Source: a virus
Virus record (IMG/VR): IMGVR_UViG_3300045970_000591
Coordinates: 32,001 to 96,000 of that record
Strand: one strand, 5' to 3'
DNA: 64,000 bases
The notes below the pieces were generated by a model. That model did not search any database and was not told the DNA's origin. It saw only the letters and a list, made by a program, of their open reading frames with translations. Both the position numbers and the translations under genes were made by a program. Of the stretch, positions 9,256 to 19,475 are shown piece by piece; position 1 is the first letter of the stretch; every line of letters starts with the position of its first letter.

Positions 9256-10167
9256 ATGATAGAGTTTGATGACGACGAAGACAGTGAAGACATTATTCAG
9301 GAAGTTTCGGTATTTCCAGTTAAAAAGATTAACTATCTGAATAACAAGGATATGCTAAAAGAAATACACAAAAGTAAAAATTCATTTAGTGAGTATGTGG
9401 ATCCGAAGTACGAAGACTACGACGTTATAGTTGAAAAGGTAGAAGATATGTTGCTTGACGATACAATAACACGAGCAAAGGCTACTAGAGCATCAAGAAT
9501 AGCAGCAAGGAACTACGAAGCAGCGTTATTGGCAGCTGGTGTTGTTACTAAAGCTGATAAGCCAAAGTTAGCTGAATATAAAGTCAAGCCGGATACTATT
9601 TCAGTTGACGATCTTGTATTTCGTGTATTAGGGTTTGATCATATACCGATGGCACCAGGAAGAAAAAAATCTCCAAAATCTACTGCCGACGGTCATATGA
9701 AACTAAACTTCTTCCCATTTAAGCATTATATATTGGTAAATAGTATACCGGTAGAGGTTGGAAGATCACATTCCAAGAAAGGGGCATTTAGTTTAGATCA
9801 CGGGTCTATAACAAATAAACTTGCCAAAATGTTTATTCTTATGGTTAATAAGTATGGACAACGAGGTAACTGGCGCGGATATACCTATTTAGATGAAATG
9901 AAAGGGCAAGCATTGCTACAGCTATCTCATATGGGCTTACAGTTTGATGAATACAAATCTGACAACCCATTTTCGTATTATACTGCATCTGTAAGTAATA
10001 GCTTTACAAGAGTGTTTAACTTAGAAAAGAAAAGTCAAGATTTACGGGATGATTTACTAATAGATAGTGGTGCAAGTCCTAGCTTTACACGGCAACTTGA
10101 GTTAGAAACAGAAGTAAGACAACTAAGAGAGGATGCACAGGATGCTGCCAAACAAGGGATTATTTAA
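9256..10167 (+). CDS. gp55: Late-transcription sigma factor, gp55-like
   Basis: YLNNKDML.EIHKSK N-terminus. LAKMFILMVNKY...NWRGYTYLDEMKGQALLQL...FDEYKSDNPFSYYT...NSF.RV.N.EKK is the gp55 region 2 pattern. Upstream of gp47/gp46 as in T4-like phages. Confidence 0.85.
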   Translation: MIEFDDDEDSEDIIQEVSVFPVKKINYLNNKDMLKEIHKSKNSFSEYVDPKYEDYDVIVEKVEDMLLDDTITRAKATRASRIAARNYEAALLAAGVVTKADKPKLAEYKVKPDTISVDDLVFRVLGFDHIPMAPGRKKSPKSTADGHMKLNFFPFKHYILVNSIPVEVGRSHSKKGAFSLDHGSITNKLAKMFILMVNKYGQRGNWRGYTYLDEMKGQALLQLSHMGLQFDEYKSDNPFSYYTASVSNSFTRVFNLEKKSQDLRDDLLIDSGASPSFTRQLELETEVRQLREDAQDAAKQGII

Positions 10168-11161
10168 AAAGTGTGCTGTTTTTACAGATATACACCTCGG
10201 TCTAAAGCATAATTCTAAAGATCATAACGAAGATTGCATTGAGTTTTTAAAATGGTTTATCGCCCAAGCAAAAGCTAAGGGCGCCGAAACCTGTATATCA
10301 ATGGGTGATTTTCATCATCATAGAAACAGTGTAAATGCAGTTACACAAAACTACATGATAACTGCATTGCAAATGTTAAATGATAACTTTGAAAAGGTAT
10401 ATTTTCTCGTAGGTAATCATGATTTATATTTCAGGGAAAATAGATCAATAACAACATCAAGATTTGCTACATTATTTCCAAATGTCATAATGGTTGACCA
10501 GCCAATAATAATAGATGACACAGCACTTGTGCCATGGTTGGTAGAGGATGAGTGGAAAGACGTTGCCGAAATGAAAACAAAATATCTATTTGGCCACTTA
10601 GAATTGCCGGGCTTTAAAATGAATGCAATGATCGACATGCCGGATCACGGTATGTTAAATGCAACACACTTTGAATTTCAGGATTATGTGTTTTCAGGTC
10701 ATTTCCATTTACGCCAAACTAAGGGTAAAATAAACTACATAGGCAACCCGTTTGGACATAACTTTTCAGATGTGTGGGATTTCGATCGAGGTGCAATGTT
10801 TTTAGAGTGGAACGGAGAACCAGAGTATGTGAATTATGCAGACGGTCCGCGATTCATTAATATACCGTTATCATCGTTAATGGCCGATCCAGAAAAATAT
10901 CTATTACCAAAAACACACCTACAGGTTGTGTTAGATATAGATATTACATACGAAGAAGCAACATATTTACGAGAAACATTCATAGAGCAATATTCGATAC
11001 GAGAGTTTAAGCTAATACGAAGTAAAGAAGAAACTACCTCAACTGAAGGTAAAGATATCACTATGAAAACGGTAGATACTATTGTTATAGAGCAGTTACT
11101 AACTGTAGTAGATGGTACATGCACTGGCGCAAAGTTAATAGAAATATATAATAGGTTATAA
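10133..11161 (+). CDS. gp47: Recombination endonuclease subunit (Mre11/SbcD-like)
   Basis: Metallophosphoesterase motifs DIH, GDFHH, GNHD, GHLE, SGHFH. Confidence 0.92.
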   Translation: MHRMLPNKGLFKKCAVFTDIHLGLKHNSKDHNEDCIEFLKWFIAQAKAKGAETCISMGDFHHHRNSVNAVTQNYMITALQMLNDNFEKVYFLVGNHDLYFRENRSITTSRFATLFPNVIMVDQPIIIDDTALVPWLVEDEWKDVAEMKTKYLFGHLELPGFKMNAMIDMPDHGMLNATHFEFQDYVFSGHFHLRQTKGKINYIGNPFGHNFSDVWDFDRGAMFLEWNGEPEYVNYADGPRFINIPLSSLMADPEKYLLPKTHLQVVLDIDITYEEATYLRETFIEQYSIREFKLIRSKEETTSTEGKDITMKTVDTIVIEQLLTVVDGTCTGAKLIEIYNRL

Positions 11162-11164
11162 TAA

Positions 11165-12964
11165 ATGCTCCAAATAAACAAACTAACAATACAAAACTTT
11201 CTATCTGTTGGAAATATAACCCAACAGGTGGAATTCAGCAGAAGTGAGCTTGTATTGGTATTAGGCGAGAATTTAGATTTAGGTGGAAATGACAATCGCA
11301 ACGGTGTCGGTAAGAGTGCCATTGTGAATGCATTATCTTATGCACTGTATGGCACAGCATTAACAAATATAAGAAAAGATAATCTTATAAATGTTTCTAA
11401 CTCAAAGAATATGTTGGTTACACTTACGTTCGATATTAATGGAAAAGCATACACTATTAAACGTGGTAGAAGACCTAATATATTTAAGTTTATAGAGGCA
11501 GGTAAAGAGACAGAGGAAGAAGATACATTAACCAAAGTAAAAGCTGCTGACATCGATGAATCGCAGGGCGAGGGTAGGAATACACAAGAAGAAATAGTAA
11601 GAACTATCGGCATAACGCACGACATGTTCAAGCACATCCTTGCGCTTAATACTTATATAGAACCGTTTCTTGCGTTACGCACAAATGATCAAAGGGTTCT
11701 GATAGAACAACTTTTAGGTATTACGAAGCTATCTGAAAAAGCTGAAAAGTTAAAGGAAGAGGCAAGGATTACAAAAGATGAAATTAAAGCGGAAGAATTT
11801 CGTATTGCGGCAGTTGCAGCGGCGAATAAAAGAATTGAAACTAATATTTCGGGATTGGAAACCAAATCGCTTACGTGGAACAGTGAAAAGACGAAAAAAA
11901 TAAATGAGTTACAAACTTCTATCTTAGAATTTATGGCAGTGGATATAGATAAAGAGATAGAGTTGCATAAATCTAAAAAAGAAGTAGAAGATCTTACTGC
12001 AGAATATAGGGCATTATCCCGTGAACTAACTGCGTTAGAAAAGGATGTGGTAGAATCTACCAAAGCAGTAGCGCGGCTTGATAAAATATTATCCACATCT
12101 GTAGAAAAAATATGTCCAACATGCTCTCAGGAAATGGACAAAGATACTCACGAACAAGTACACAACGAGTATGTAACCAGACAGAAAGACGAAAAAGACA
12201 AACTTGTTACAAAGAAACTCAAGAAAGAAGAAGTGTCAACACTTGCAACATCGGTTAAAGCAATCATCCCTATATTGCCTGACACATTTTACGACACAAT
12301 AGATGAGGCATATGAGCACAAAACAACACTTAGTAACCTCGGTAATAGCTTAGAGAGTGAATTAGCAACTGCTAATCCATATGTAGAGCAAATCGAATCC
12401 TTAAGAAAAGATGGTATTCAGGAGATTAAGTTCGATGTAATGAACGAGTTGGTTAAGCTAAAGGATCACCAGGATTTTCTTCTTAAACTATTAACTAATA
12501 AAGATAGTTTCATTCGTAAAAAGATTATCGACCAAAATCTAACATATTTAAATCATAGATTAGCACAGTATCTAATAGACATTGGGTTGCCCCACACAGT
12601 GAAGTTTAAGTCTGATCTTGAGGTAGAAATTACAATGTATGGAAAAGAGTTTGACTTTGATAATCTGAGTAGGGGAGAAAGAACGCGGCTTATATTATCA
12701 CTATCCTGGTCATTTAGGGATGTTTTCGAATCAATGAATGATAAGATAAATCTACTGTTTGTTGACGAGCTACTCGATAATGGGTTGGATACAAGTGGAG
12801 TGGAATCATCATTAGTTATATTGAAAAAGATGGCAAGGGATCATAAGAGGAATGTATTTTTGATTTCACACCGCGATGAATTAGTGGGTAGAATATCTAA
12901 TGTATTGAAAGTTGTCAAGGAAGGCGGGTTTACCAACATCGAAAGTGTCGAAAACGACGAATAA
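11165..12964 (+). CDS. gp46: Recombination ATPase subunit (Rad50/SbcC-like)
   Basis: Walker A NGVGKS, coiled coil with CPTC zinc hook, LSRGE signature, Walker B LFVDE, LISH. Confidence 0.93.
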   Translation: MLQINKLTIQNFLSVGNITQQVEFSRSELVLVLGENLDLGGNDNRNGVGKSAIVNALSYALYGTALTNIRKDNLINVSNSKNMLVTLTFDINGKAYTIKRGRRPNIFKFIEAGKETEEEDTLTKVKAADIDESQGEGRNTQEEIVRTIGITHDMFKHILALNTYIEPFLALRTNDQRVLIEQLLGITKLSEKAEKLKEEARITKDEIKAEEFRIAAVAAANKRIETNISGLETKSLTWNSEKTKKINELQTSILEFMAVDIDKEIELHKSKKEVEDLTAEYRALSRELTALEKDVVESTKAVARLDKILSTSVEKICPTCSQEMDKDTHEQVHNEYVTRQKDEKDKLVTKKLKKEEVSTLATSVKAIIPILPDTFYDTIDEAYEHKTTLSNLGNSLESELATANPYVEQIESLRKDGIQEIKFDVMNELVKLKDHQDFLLKLLTNKDSFIRKKIIDQNLTYLNHRLAQYLIDIGLPHTVKFKSDLEVEITMYGKEFDFDNLSRGERTRLILSLSWSFRDVFESMNDKINLLFVDELLDNGLDTSGVESSLVILKKMARDHKRNVFLISHRDELVGRISNVLKVVKEGGFTNIESVENDE

Positions 12965-16427: not shown

Positions 16428-16486
16428 AATAACTCCCTATTTAACATATTTACCATTTGGATAAATATGCTATTAGGGAGAAAGAT

Positions 16487-17068
16487 ATGTATTCGGACGC
16501 TTTCGAGGCTGCGATTAATCATGCCATGTTATATGAAGTCGGTGGATTTTGGAAAATGACCCCAGATGTTGAAGCAGGGCTTATATCTACTCCTCAACAG
16601 CGTAAAGCAGTGGGTTATGTAAATGACCCCGATGACTCGGGCGGCGAAACAAAGTTCGGGGTCGCAAAGAACGCGAATTTAGACTTAAATATAACCGATC
16701 TAACATGGGCACAGGCCAAAGCAGTCTATTACAAGCGATATTGGTTATTAGGCTCTTGCGACAAACTTTCTCCGCGTACCGGTATATTGCACTTAGATGG
16801 ATGCATCAATCACGGTGTAGGCAGAGCAAGTAAGTTTTTACAAAAGGCATTATTGGTAGAGGAAGATGGTAAGATAGGTCCTGCTACCTTAGAAAAAGCC
16901 ACTAATGCAGATCAGATTGTGCTATGCAACGCAATCTGTGATAACAGAGAACAGTTTTATCGTGACATTGCGGCCAATAAACCCACGCAAGAAAAGTTCT
17001 TGGCAGGGTGGCTTCGCCGTATAAAAGAGATGAGGGTTTTTACAACAGATCCCGAATCATTTAACTGA
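16487..17068 (+). CDS. Glycoside hydrolase family 108 lysozyme with PG-binding-3 domain (endolysin candidate)
   Basis: EVGG...GYVNDPDDSGGETKFGV, GCINHG, R..FY..I....P.Q..FL.GW.RR. Start reassigned to ATG 16487 after GGGAG. Late promoter TAAATA at 16462-16467. Confidence 0.88.
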   Translation: MYSDAFEAAINHAMLYEVGGFWKMTPDVEAGLISTPQQRKAVGYVNDPDDSGGETKFGVAKNANLDLNITDLTWAQAKAVYYKRYWLLGSCDKLSPRTGILHLDGCINHGVGRASKFLQKALLVEEDGKIGPATLEKATNADQIVLCNAICDNREQFYRDIAANKPTQEKFLAGWLRRIKEMRVFTTDPESFN

Positions 17069-17140
17069 CTCAATATTATTAGCCATAGTTGTGTCGCGAT
17101 GATAAAATAGTATAACAACAAAAAGTTGTTCAATAACATT

Positions 17141-17146
17141 TAAATA
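17141..17146 (+). promoter_or_regulatory. T4-like late promoter (TAAATA) at the 5' end of the ORF-free structured interval
   Basis: Same hexamer precedes many structural genes in this window. No ORF follows it on the + strand. Confidence 0.5.
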
Positions 17147-17149
17147 ATA

Positions 17150-17812
17150 AGTAGATAGCAGGACTGACGCGCCCTGTGAACTTTCAAAGACAAAAGCGTA
17201 AATCTTTCAAATCATTTCAAATCAATATAAATCAGCGCGTTGCGTATCACAGCGGTATGCGGCAAAGACATACATTATAAGGTTAGCGAGCCTAGTTAAA
17301 TATTTCGCAGGCGTGTCGTTCAGAATAGAGCGCAACAGCCAAGTCCGTTGAATGTACATCGGCAAGATCATATGAAAGATAGAGCTACAGAGGCTCGGGC
17401 GAACGGAGGAATCCATGCACGTCACAAGTAAGATGATCGAGTTTAAGTTTGCAGCAGGTATGTGAAAACAGGGTATGGCTTGCTGGTCGTGTAAATATTG
17501 TCTGAAAAGTATTTACATATGCGATGAGGACGTGTGGTGTTACAACACCTTGTCCCCCTTCCGAAACGCTATAAAGCAATAACCTAGCGCGTAGTTGACA
17601 TAATCAATCCAACACTACATAAATATTTCGGTTCAGAGTCTGGCGATGCTGTCAAGCATTTTCGGTATCCAAGGTTTTGGATACCCTTGGTCTGACTTCT
17701 ACCGTCAGGACACTTAAATACCGATCATCTTTCTTAAAAAGTTGTCTGAATAAATGCATCGCTGAGTTTACGAAGCGAAGGCATTTATGAAAGACTTGGT
17801 CTGTAAGACCGA
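17150..17812 (+). ncRNA. Candidate large structured non-coding RNA (~660 nt), family unrecognised
   Basis: No credible ORF. Nested long-range helices: 17335-17345/17793-17804 (11 bp, 1 bulge) and 17430-17448/17712-17731 (10 + 8 bp). About ten local hairpins, including 17664-17685 (9 bp perfect), 17750-17788 and 17490-17517. G-U pairs favour the + strand. Ends are approximate. Confidence 0.6.
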
Positions 17813-17821
17813 TTAGTTGAG

Positions 17822-18325
17822 CTATATAGTTTTTCTATATATCTTCTTGAGTAGCTTTATTACTTCTGCATTTGTCTCTGCAGGCATAAGTGCTGATGAC
17901 TTAAGGGATATTGAGTATATATGTGAGCCTATAGTGGTCATTGATATGATACCTGAATATTTCTGGAAATACATAGATATGAATGCTGCTATTTGTAATT
18001 CTATATTGCCATTAATGGATACGAATGACTTTGAAGATATATCTAGTGATCTTGAATATTTGATCTCTCCCTTGACTATGCACAGCTCTGTAAGTATTTT
18101 ATCGCCAGTGGGTTCTTTGATAAAAATATGAGCAGGAAATATTTCGATATCTGTGTCTATATCTATACAAATAGCCGAATGAGTTAATGACTGGGTTTTA
18201 TATAAACTCCAATCTATATTCTGTGCATCTAGCAGTCTTGAAAGATCATAGACCCATCTATGCTTAGGGTATCTCTCCCAACATTCTATATCGTTTAAAG
18301 GAATATCAGTTTCTATCGTATCCAT
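17822..18325 (-). CDS. Hypothetical protein, possibly a short/degenerate ATP-grasp-like protein
   Basis: N-terminal D..CWERYPKHRWVYD resembles the phage ATP-grasp family N-terminus as I recall it. Only 167 aa. GGAG SD; start overlaps the upstream stop (TAATG). Confidence 0.4.
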   Translation of the reverse strand: MDTIETDIPLNDIECWERYPKHRWVYDLSRLLDAQNIDWSLYKTQSLTHSAICIDIDTDIEIFPAHIFIKEPTGDKILTELCIVKGEIKYSRSLDISSKSFVSINGNIELQIAAFISMYFQKYSGIISMTTIGSHIYSISLKSSALMPAETNAEVIKLLKKIYRKTI

Positions 18326-18564
18326 TACATATACTCCTTTGCATTAGGATTCTGTTCTTTTATCTTTTTGTTTATTACTCTTATTGCCATTTCTCTATCT
18401 GTAAAACACATTCTCCATGCCGATTCAAGTTCTATACCACCTTTCATGAAATAACATATTTCCATTACTTGTTCTTTCAACGCCCTTGTCTCAGCAGCAT
18501 ATGATTTAAGTAGGTCTTGAAGCTGCTCTGGTGGCAGGAAGATTAAAGACCTTATGAAAAATTT
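18325..18564 (-). CDS. gp51-like baseplate-hub assembly domain in the -1 frame of the gp26-like gene (not in ORF track)
   Basis: Open frame FFIRSLIFLPPEQLQDLLKSYAAETRALKEQVMEICYFMKGGIELESAWRMCFTDREMAIRVINKKIKEQNPNAKEYM*. It begins at slippery heptamer A AAT TTT (18558-18564). First in-frame ATG is at 18465. Confidence 0.65.
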   Translation of the reverse strand, partial: KFFIRSLIFLPPEQLQDLLKSYAAETRALKEQVMEICYFMKGGIELESAWRMCFTDREMAIRVINKKIKEQNPNAKEYM

Positions 18565-19394
18565 ACTGGATTAAAATCTATCTCACTCTCCCACGAATGT
18601 CCGCATTTATCGCAGTTGGCAATAAAAGATCTTTTTATACCTATTAGGTTTATTTCTTTTATTAGGTCTGATATTTTATCATATTCGGTTTTGTTAATAT
18701 TATTAAGAAACTCGGCTATAAATGCTCTATCAGTTACATTAATATTATTATTTTCATCTACTACCTTTATAACAGAGTTGCATAGTAGGTCTCTTGTTAT
18801 AACAATCATTTCTTTAAATGCATCCGAAAACATCTTCATTCTTTTATCTTCGTTGATTTCTTCATTGGCTATAGACCTTGATATTTTACTTTGTTCGAAC
18901 TGTGCGTGAAGTCCTTTTAGTAACTCTGGAAAACCGTAAGGCTTAACAAATATACTAACTCCACTGTCAAGATTAACTACATAGTCTTTTTCAAGATATG
19001 TCATGTTATCTATTGAATACTGTAAGTCTAGTTTAAATAAGTGTTGAGTTCCACACGACGGGCAAACTAGTTCTGTTTCAAGCGTATCCTCGTATGTGGC
19101 AAATCTTATAGCAGTGATTAACGCATCAATGTCGTTAGTAAGTAATGCTGTTGCTTTTTTAACGGCAGGCACACAACTATTAATAATCTCGACTAATGCC
19201 TCACCGTTTAGCAGTGCATCGGGGTTCTTTAATAGTAGTTCATCTTTACCTGTCATAGGCATAACACCTATTTCTCCGGTGGTAGTAAATTCTACAACAT
19301 TATCGGTATAGTATGATGTTCCGCTAGGTAGTTTCATATAAAGTTTAATCTGACGGAAATATTGTTTGAGTGGATTGTTAGCTTTTTGATCCAT
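18552..19394 (-). CDS. gp26: Baseplate hub assembly chaperone, T4 gp26-like
   Basis: NPLKQYFR..K.Y..LPS...Y...PMTGKDEL.LKNPDALLNGE, two CxxC pairs (CPSC, CDKC), ends F.P.NF. Divergent from tape measure. Start set to ATG 19394. Confidence 0.75.
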   Translation of the reverse strand: MDQKANNPLKQYFRQIKLYMKLPSGTSYYTDNVVEFTTTGEIGVMPMTGKDELLLKNPDALLNGEALVEIINSCVPAVKKATALLTNDIDALITAIRFATYEDTLETELVCPSCGTQHLFKLDLQYSIDNMTYLEKDYVVNLDSGVSIFVKPYGFPELLKGLHAQFEQSKISRSIANEEINEDKRMKMFSDAFKEMIVITRDLLCNSVIKVVDENNNINVTDRAFIAEFLNNINKTEYDKISDLIKEINLIGIKRSFIANCDKCGHSWESEIDFNPVNFS

Positions 19395-19417
19395 AATGCG
19401 CCTTATTTTATATTTGA

Positions 19418-19423
19418 TAAATA
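19418..19423 (+). promoter_or_regulatory. Late promoter TAAATA for the tape measure/portal operon; divergent partner at 19445-19450 (minus)
   Basis: GATAAATA 53 nt upstream of ATG 19476, within a 9-bp inverted repeat (19410-19434). Confidence 0.6.
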
Positions 19424-19475
19424 GTATCAAATATGTATTACTTTTATTTATCTATATACTTAATTGCCGGAAATT

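Follow-up and report, generated by a model that had tools for sequence, protein, structure and literature searches.

A predicted family of large structured RNAs at the lysin/baseplate-hub junction of uncultured jumbo phages

Known large RNAs and the jumbo-phage locus

Outside the ribosome, RNase P and the self-splicing introns, very few large non-coding RNAs with an intricate fold are known. Those that have been solved gave unexpected biology, namely the HEARO guide RNA, the GOLLD and ROOL RNA cages, and the OLE membrane ribonucleoprotein. GOLLD and ROOL are often found near tRNAs. In tmRNA, the 5' and 3' ends pair with each other. For GOLLD and ROOL, the cited preprint reports cryo-EM structures that show RNA-only homo-oligomeric complexes (bioRxiv 10.1101/2024.12.08.627333 = PMC12286853).

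The element described here lies on the plus strand at about positions 17110-17812 of the window, i.e., the 64-kb stretch of DNA that was analyzed as part of a 123-kb IMG/VR virus record with an estimated completeness of 36%. It is very probably a real structured RNA gene. In kind, it is comparable to GOLLD and ROOL, the 'ornate' RNAs associated with phages, since it spans several hundred nucleotides, contains many covarying helices and invariant loops, is non-coding and occurs in a phage context. It differs from both in having no sequence or structure homology to them (no Rfam match, E up to 10) and in its location at a junction of lysin and baseplate hub genes. The modular build with its G-depleted tether and core-only paralog is likewise particular to the jumbo-phage RNA. 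With OLE, raiA and other large bacterial ncRNAs it shares a large, conserved, multi-helix structure defined by comparative analysis; those RNAs, however, are encoded by bacterial chromosomal genes and not by jumbo phages, and again no Rfam match was obtained. Like phi29 pRNA, tmRNA and RNase P RNA, it is a structured RNA encoded or used by phages, but its size and architecture are different and neither Rfam nor ARAGORN connects it to them. A possible parallel to tmRNA is that its ends may pair (GUGAAC with GUUUAC). Unlike tmRNA, it has no tRNA-like end, and the G-depleted tether (5% G) offers no start codon for a tag ORF.

The window was searched with cmscan against Rfam 15, which gave no match at gathering thresholds. 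For the region 16900-18000 with E up to 10, only four chance-level matches to unrelated families were returned, and six further sequences, comprising family members and paralogs, gave none. The Rfam covariance models of GOLLD, ROOL, OLE, raiA and HEARO were not matched, nor were those of RNase P RNA, group I and group II introns, phi29 pRNA and 6S RNA. ARAGORN found no tmRNA or tRNA genes in the window. An earlier note on this DNA, which had named cmscan as a check, had failed to match the region to RNase P, tmRNA or group I/II intron consensus, and the Rfam and ARAGORN results agree with it at gathering as well as permissive thresholds. No description of the RNA family was found in literature searches. 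The same note had proposed that the plus strand encodes a large structured RNA of several domains that had not been described before; this proposal is upheld by covariation in about 50 homologs together with the lack of a conserved ORF and of any Rfam, tmRNA or tRNA match.

Gene neighborhood and distribution

The interval 17069-17816 is the longest ORF-free interval of the window, as had been claimed earlier. With an ORF cut-off of 70 aa it measures 748 nt, compared to 226 nt for the next longest. Its neighbors are the following:

16457-17068, plus strand: GH108/PG_binding_3 endolysin gene, the upstream neighbor of the RNA (Pfam and PHROG matches)
17822-18325, minus strand: convergent ORF of 167 aa, assigned by synteny (about 190 aa in relatives)
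Beyond the convergent 167-aa ORF and before the gp26-like gene: 51-aa ORF
18552-19430, minus strand: gp26-like baseplate hub gene (Pfam T4_baseplate)

The upstream lysin gene is complete and the RNA element is intergenic. Wherever a contig extends far enough, the same order is found, i.e., lysin (+), RNA (+), convergent ORF of about 190 aa (-) and gp26-like baseplate hub (-). The lysin is located upstream of the RNA in 21 of 24 loci, with the remaining three contigs (L130, L147, L151) ending short of it, and the convergent ORF is found downstream in all 24. The flanking proteins are merely 42-71% identical across these loci. In two members, L149 and L159, an additional stretch of about 800 bp lies between the lysin gene and the RNA with its TAAAAT box. 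No lead on the 167-aa protein was obtained from Pfam, PHROG or Atlas; it is unrelated to the neighbor protein of the paralog described below, and a search for relatives carrying it returned a near-identical contig alone. Further upstream, the window encodes SbcD-like and SbcC-like (gp47/gp46-type) nucleases at 10133-12964. They are 69-85% identical in RNA-bearing relatives and can be used as markers of the clade.

Homologous intervals were collected from about 50 distinct metagenomic and IMG/VR contigs. A lysin-based search led to three IMG/VR contigs with a homologous gap, and a motif conserved in these contigs (AGATAGC-N5-TGACGC-N5-GTGAAC) was used for retrieval. It yielded 39 metagenome loci, about 35 of which are true homologs with the conserved blocks in the same order: an upstream G(C/A)TAAAATAGTGTAAC element, the 5' motif, and the 3' motif AGTTTACGAAGCGAG located 543-623 nt downstream. 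A second retrieval motif, the invariant loop of helix P10b, gave 39 IMG/VR loci, nearly all of them confirmed by nhmmer. Among these are four complete genomes (362,810-385,394 bp) that have direct terminal repeats. The metagenomes were sampled from pond, wetland, lake, sediment, fen and rhizosphere, and a search of sequencing runs listed no RNA run that contains the sequence. As far as seen, the family appears restricted to a single clade of uncultured jumbo phages of about 360-385 kb from freshwater, sediment and soil.

Scanning for the exact 3' motif returned chance matches for the most part, and a motif scan of genome contigs gave two chance matches and no clue to the bacterial host. No match was found by blastn against 50,697 GenBank phage records. 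Neither BLAST nor nhmmer finds a homolog of the RNA in two jumbo phages related by their lysin, G001 (349 kb) and G002 (336 kb). Identity of their gp26 genes is only about 30%, and most of the gap next to gp26 is taken up by a continued coding frame and a terminator. In these distantly related phages (336-350 kb), the end of the gp26-like gene is a conserved CTTTTTTCAC stretch (L177:7880-8130 in G002, L178:7520-7770 in G001), and conservation runs about 240 nt past the stop codon of this gene.

Covariation and architecture of the fold

The plus strand of the region folds better than its dinucleotide shuffles (z = -3.77, none of 20 shuffles as good), and folding of the minus strand is weaker (z = -1.92). 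For 24 distinct full-length sequences, RNAalifold predicts 116 pairs, 55 of them with a compensatory change. A curated fold of 19 helices and 103 pairs was derived, in which rival pairings were settled by covariation. It was scored on a MAFFT alignment of the 24 sequences (A2) that had not been fitted to structure. Here, 96.9% of the cells are paired (87.2% in shuffles, 34-44% with slid partners), 53 of the 103 pairs are changed on both sides (26.5±2.7 and 7-16, respectively), and the covariation score is 0.336 compared to 0.149 in shuffles. None of 500 shuffles reached the observed values; since the sequences all belong to a single phage clade, the number of covariation events is smaller than these cell counts suggest. 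A second, independent alignment (A4) was obtained by fitting 48 distinct sequences, paralogs among them, to a covariance model of P10-P13. Here, 95.1% of the cells are paired and 17 of the 28 pairs show compensatory change, which is equaled by none of 500 shuffles. Two of the checks suggested by the earlier note, fold energy against dinucleotide shuffles and covariation in the syntenic intervals, both turned out positive.

The curated fold contains 284 G·U cells versus 26 A·C cells, which identifies the plus strand as the folded strand and bears out the earlier reading of the G-U pairs. G·U accounts for eleven percent of all pair cells, some of them invariant. No ORF of at least 35 aa is common to the family beyond the level expected from nucleotide conservation. 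The locus is therefore a conserved, strand-specific, non-coding structured element, most simply understood as an RNA gene. It is longer than 400 nt, phage-borne and non-coding, with many covarying helices and conserved unpaired nucleotides, and judged by these sequence features it is a new family among the large ornate phage RNAs. The parts of the RNA are listed from 5' to 3':

17080-17108, plus strand: promoter-like site from a consensus scan (TAGCCA, 17 nt, TAAAAT preceded by TG)
17114-17130, plus strand: P0, 5' hairpin (AACAAC/GUUGUU) that follows the TAAAAT box, with compensatory variants
17153-17201, plus strand: optional 5' domain (AGAUAGC motif, P1, GUGAAC, P2)
17158-62/17173-77, plus strand: P1, loop ACUGACGCGC, 99% paired, 2 compensatory pairs
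17176-81, plus strand: single-stranded GUGAAC of the 5' domain
17182-85/17198-201, plus strand: P2, a weak helix of the 5' domain
17202-17277, plus strand: G-depleted, A/C-rich tether with repeated (A/U)UCAAA, AACCCAA and AAUCC motifs
17278-17708, plus strand: universal core of about 430 nt, P3-P13, with covariation on A2 and A4
17286-90/17304-08, plus strand: P3
17310-12/17338-40 plus 17317-21/17328-32, plus strand: P4
17345-50/17357-62, plus strand: P5
17366-71/17433-38, plus strand: P6, 6 of 6 pairs compensatory, enclosing a variable arm (17372-17432)
17452-59/17478-85, plus strand: P7
17486-90/17521-25, plus strand: P8
17491-99/17508-16, plus strand: P8a
17528-31/17552-55, plus strand: P9
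17561-66/17626-31, plus strand: P10
17567-69/17587-89, plus strand: P10a
17591-95/17614-18, plus strand: P10b, invariant loop UUGACAUAAUCAAUCCAAC
17644-50/17655-64, plus strand: P11
17665-72/17677-84, plus strand: P12, 5 of 7 pairs compensatory in A4
17692-96/17704-08, plus strand: P13
17742-17812, plus strand: optional 3' domain, P14 and P15
17744-47/17792-95, plus strand: outer stem of P14, 5 of 5 pairs with compensatory change
Between the outer and middle stems of P14: GA/GAA internal loop
17750-57/17781-88, plus strand: middle stem of P14
17759-61/17776-78, plus strand: apical stem of P14
17764-75, plus strand: invariant apical loop of P14, 12 nt, GAGUUUACGAAG
17797-802/17806-11, plus strand: P15, terminal hairpin, 3 of 6 pairs compensatory

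As a whole, the locus is reasonably well explained as an independent structured ncRNA gene of about 700 nt whose product would be a stable, trans-acting folded particle. Transcription would start a few bases after the TAAAAT box and open with the protective 5' hairpin P0. The optional 5' domain and then an unstructured, G-depleted tether of about 75 nt would lead into the universal core, that comprises about 430 nt and 13 helices (P3-P13) with invariant loops and junctions. The 5' domain may be a docking site for the invariant apical loop of the optional 3' domain (P14-P15). Function would reside in the compact core, which could form an RNA-only assembly or scaffold a ribonucleoprotein, with the G-poor tract as a single-stranded platform or tether. 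The sequences show conservation, fold, strand, modularity, paralogy and lack of coding; we infer the promoter, the transcript ends, action in trans and the role as particle or scaffold, and the trans-acting particle or scaffold is put forward tentatively.

The TAAAAT box (17103-08) lies within the family-wide motif G(C/A)TAAAATAGTGTAAC, which nearly all full-length members carry at -42 to -54 relative to the 5' motif, and it scores as an extended -10 promoter in the consensus scan of the window. In L180, L183, L198 and L202, the box closely follows canonical intrinsic terminators that belong to the gene upstream, and in L149/L159 it stays with the RNA despite the 800 bp that separate it from the lysin gene. 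The box with its TG, its position after terminators and this co-location argue for an independent transcription unit. No intrinsic terminator is present here. The TAAATA late promoter (17141) proposed earlier is not conserved in the family. As the TAAAAT box is conserved instead, the RNA probably starts about 40 nt upstream of the previously assigned start. P0 varies in the family in a compensatory manner (AACAG/CUGUU, AACAAC/GUUGUU, AACGAU/AUCGUU). As for other promoter motifs, TAAAATAG is mildly enriched in the window, at sites without a common context, and is therefore not considered a general promoter motif. The octamer of T4 late promoters, TATAAATA, is underrepresented in the window (3 sites versus about 10 expected), and T4-type late promoters are probably not used by this phage.

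Most of the local structure proposed in the earlier note reappears in the family. Nine of its eleven local hairpins are family-wide (P1, P7, P8a, P9, P11, P12, its alternative, P13 and the middle stem of P14). Those at 17158-77 (P1), 17452-85 (P7), 17490-517 (P8a), 17528-55 (P9), 17646-59 (P11), 17664-85 (P12), 17692-708 (P13) and 17750-88 (P14 middle stem) are conserved with covariation, while the two at 17240-62 and 17382-96 are private insertions of the window's phage. Of the mutually exclusive pairings described for 17664-90, the hairpin 17665-72/17677-84 is conserved. The alternative CCAAGG/CCUUGG (17669-74/17685-90) is 86% paired with no compensatory change and is less supported. The repeat TAAATATTTCG at 17297 and 17620 is confirmed; both copies are conserved as AAUAUUUCG and form the 3' strands of P3 and P10. 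The global architecture of two long-range closing helices, in contrast, was wrong. The outer helix (17335-45/17793-804) is not conserved and competes with the covarying P15, and the inner one (17430-39/17722-31, continued by 17441-48/17712-19) is not conserved either and competes with the covarying P6. In the family these helices are 56-82% paired, with 4 compensatory pairs versus 3.3 in shuffles, a value that 209 of 500 shuffles attain.

The tether measures 48-96 nt across the family (median 75) and contains 5% G compared to 24% elsewhere in the RNA. A private GC-rich hairpin at about 17233-62 interrupts the tether of the window. Every full-length copy has a tether, including those without the 5' domain. 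This composition, the variable length and the recurring short motifs would suit a decoy or sponge, in which the A/C-rich, G-depleted tract of about 75 nt titrates a host factor that binds single-stranded RNA (Hfq, S1, Rho or RNase E, for instance) and the folded domains serve mainly for stability. The short paralog could be accommodated through the G-poor, U-rich tail that it carries after P13 instead, but it has no A/C-rich tract, and the tract matches no known binding consensus. Moreover, stabilization would not call for a module of 430 nt in which loops and junctions are invariant. A sponge is therefore considered unlikely.

The unpaired core stretches J6/7 (GAGUUUAAGUUUG), J9/10 (CCCCCUU) and the P10b loop are invariant. 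Together with the size and the multi-helix core, these many invariant unpaired nucleotides could also point to a large ribozyme that processes itself or acts on other phage or host RNA. At permissive Rfam thresholds, however, RNase P, group I and II introns and small ribozymes are not matched, the RNA interrupts no gene and no processing site is evident. Earlier 'ornate' RNAs predicted as ribozymes turned out otherwise, and we regard catalysis as improbable here as well. A folded particle or scaffold remains the preferred reading of the core.

In the 3' domain, the GUUUAC of the P14 loop could pair with GUGAAC (17176-81) of the 5' domain. L200 shows one compensatory change, two members are wobble-compatible and L198 has one mismatch. 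With a single compensatory example and one mismatch, docking of the 3' loop on the 5' domain is at most plausible.

Modular variants, the short paralog and the convergent gene

The 5' domain (P1-P2) occurs in most members. It is absent from L183, L195 and L203, where P0 runs directly into the tether, and from a short paralog. The paralog keeps P3-P13 alone, with further compensatory changes, and adjoins a PhoH-like gene, with a G-poor, U-rich tail following P13. Copies are located as follows:

L201:8941-9397, minus strand: short paralog
L196:12296-12575, minus strand: short paralog
G008:C1:139289-139448: short paralog
G009:C1:123376-123536: short paralog

In one lineage (L163:2879-3345; also L157, L184, L185, L190-L192 and L207), the 3' domain is disrupted by an insertion of about 390 nt that consists of a perfect 17-bp hairpin and an 82-aa ORF with a Shine-Dalgarno sequence. 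Since the paralog retains only P3-P13, some members do without the 5' domain and the L163 lineage has an interrupted 3' domain, the core is regarded as the probable functional unit.

Three of the four complete genomes carry both the full-length RNA and the paralog, which share a strand and are separated by 47-53% of the genome, and the fourth (G007) has a single copy without the paralog. No second copy is present in the 123-kb fragment. This spacing, and the location of both copies at points of transcription convergence, would fit an element that acts at the DNA level, i.e., an origin of replication or packaging at which the plus strand folds as single-stranded DNA and which is possibly primed by a transcript; a strand-specific structure would suit single-stranded DNA as well. 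The spacing, however, represents one inherited arrangement and not three independent observations, one complete genome has a single copy, and the core is lost in L003. A share of 11% G·U pair cells, invariant ones included, is typical of RNA and not of DNA hairpins, and a multi-junction fold of 430 nt likewise speaks against this reading. A persistent R-loop is disfavored by the low G content that the unstructured tract has in the transcript sense. An origin is thus very improbable, and an RNA gene is the reading followed here.

A bolder form of the RNA reading, rather speculative in our judgment, would make the family a new class of large phage RNA with the core of about 430 nt as a self-contained machine (ribozyme or self-assembling particle), its two copies about half a genome apart serving in genome replication, packaging or take-over of host RNA metabolism. 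To our knowledge, no described RNA family has such properties. A template RNA of the retron, DGR or DRT kind would be accompanied by a reverse transcriptase gene; no PF00078 match was obtained in the 123-kb fragment, which itself covers about 36% of the genome. With a defined fold, about 50 variants, a minimal core delimited by the paralog and complete phage genomes, the family is ready for in vitro transcription, probing and cryo-EM.

In most members (e.g., L141:2460-3035, L162:1991-2563), the convergent ORF of about 190 aa overlaps the last ~55 nt of the RNA. It extends 17 codons into P15 and P14, and its stop codon TAA is the complement of UUA in the invariant loop GAGUUUACGAAG. A conserved tail (...SGLTDRVLHETLAS) is thereby encoded antisense to P15 and P14. 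In the window (TAG at 17822-24, 167 aa) and in L200, the ORF ends earlier and P14 and P15 are still kept. Compensatory changes in P15 alter the encoded tail peptide (GLTD, GPTD, GPSG). From the retention of P14 and P15 where there is no overlap, and from these peptide changes, we regard the fold of the RNA as the primary constraint.

The overlap, with a stop codon complementary to the invariant loop, and the position of both paralogs, each of which closes a transcription unit and faces a convergent gene, would also be expected if the element acted in cis, as a structured 3' UTR or insulator of the lysin unit, or if its 3' domain were antisense to the 3' end of the ~190-aa gene. Such a role is doubtful on several grounds. 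P14 and P15 are retained in the window and L200 regardless of the overlap, no known UTR or terminator comes near the core in complexity, and the RNA has its own TAAAAT box after upstream terminators and no intrinsic terminator. Elsewhere in the 123-kb fragment, no antisense target above chance was found. Complements of at least 12 nt number 17 compared to roughly 10 expected from a size-only estimate, and with the longest at 13 nt no target is evident. Little probability is therefore assigned to a cis or antisense function, and an independent RNA is preferred.

The closest relative by proteins, L003, has a lysin that is 83% identical. In this part of the contig (L003:4761-5200 and L003:5320-5931), the RNA keeps the 5' domain, the tether and the 3' domain, and the core of ~430 nt is replaced by unrelated sequence without excess folding (z = 0.08). 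This replacement and the single copy in G007 indicate that the RNA is not strictly essential. A homing-endonuclease-like ORF (PHROG 314) adjoins the replaced core of L003.
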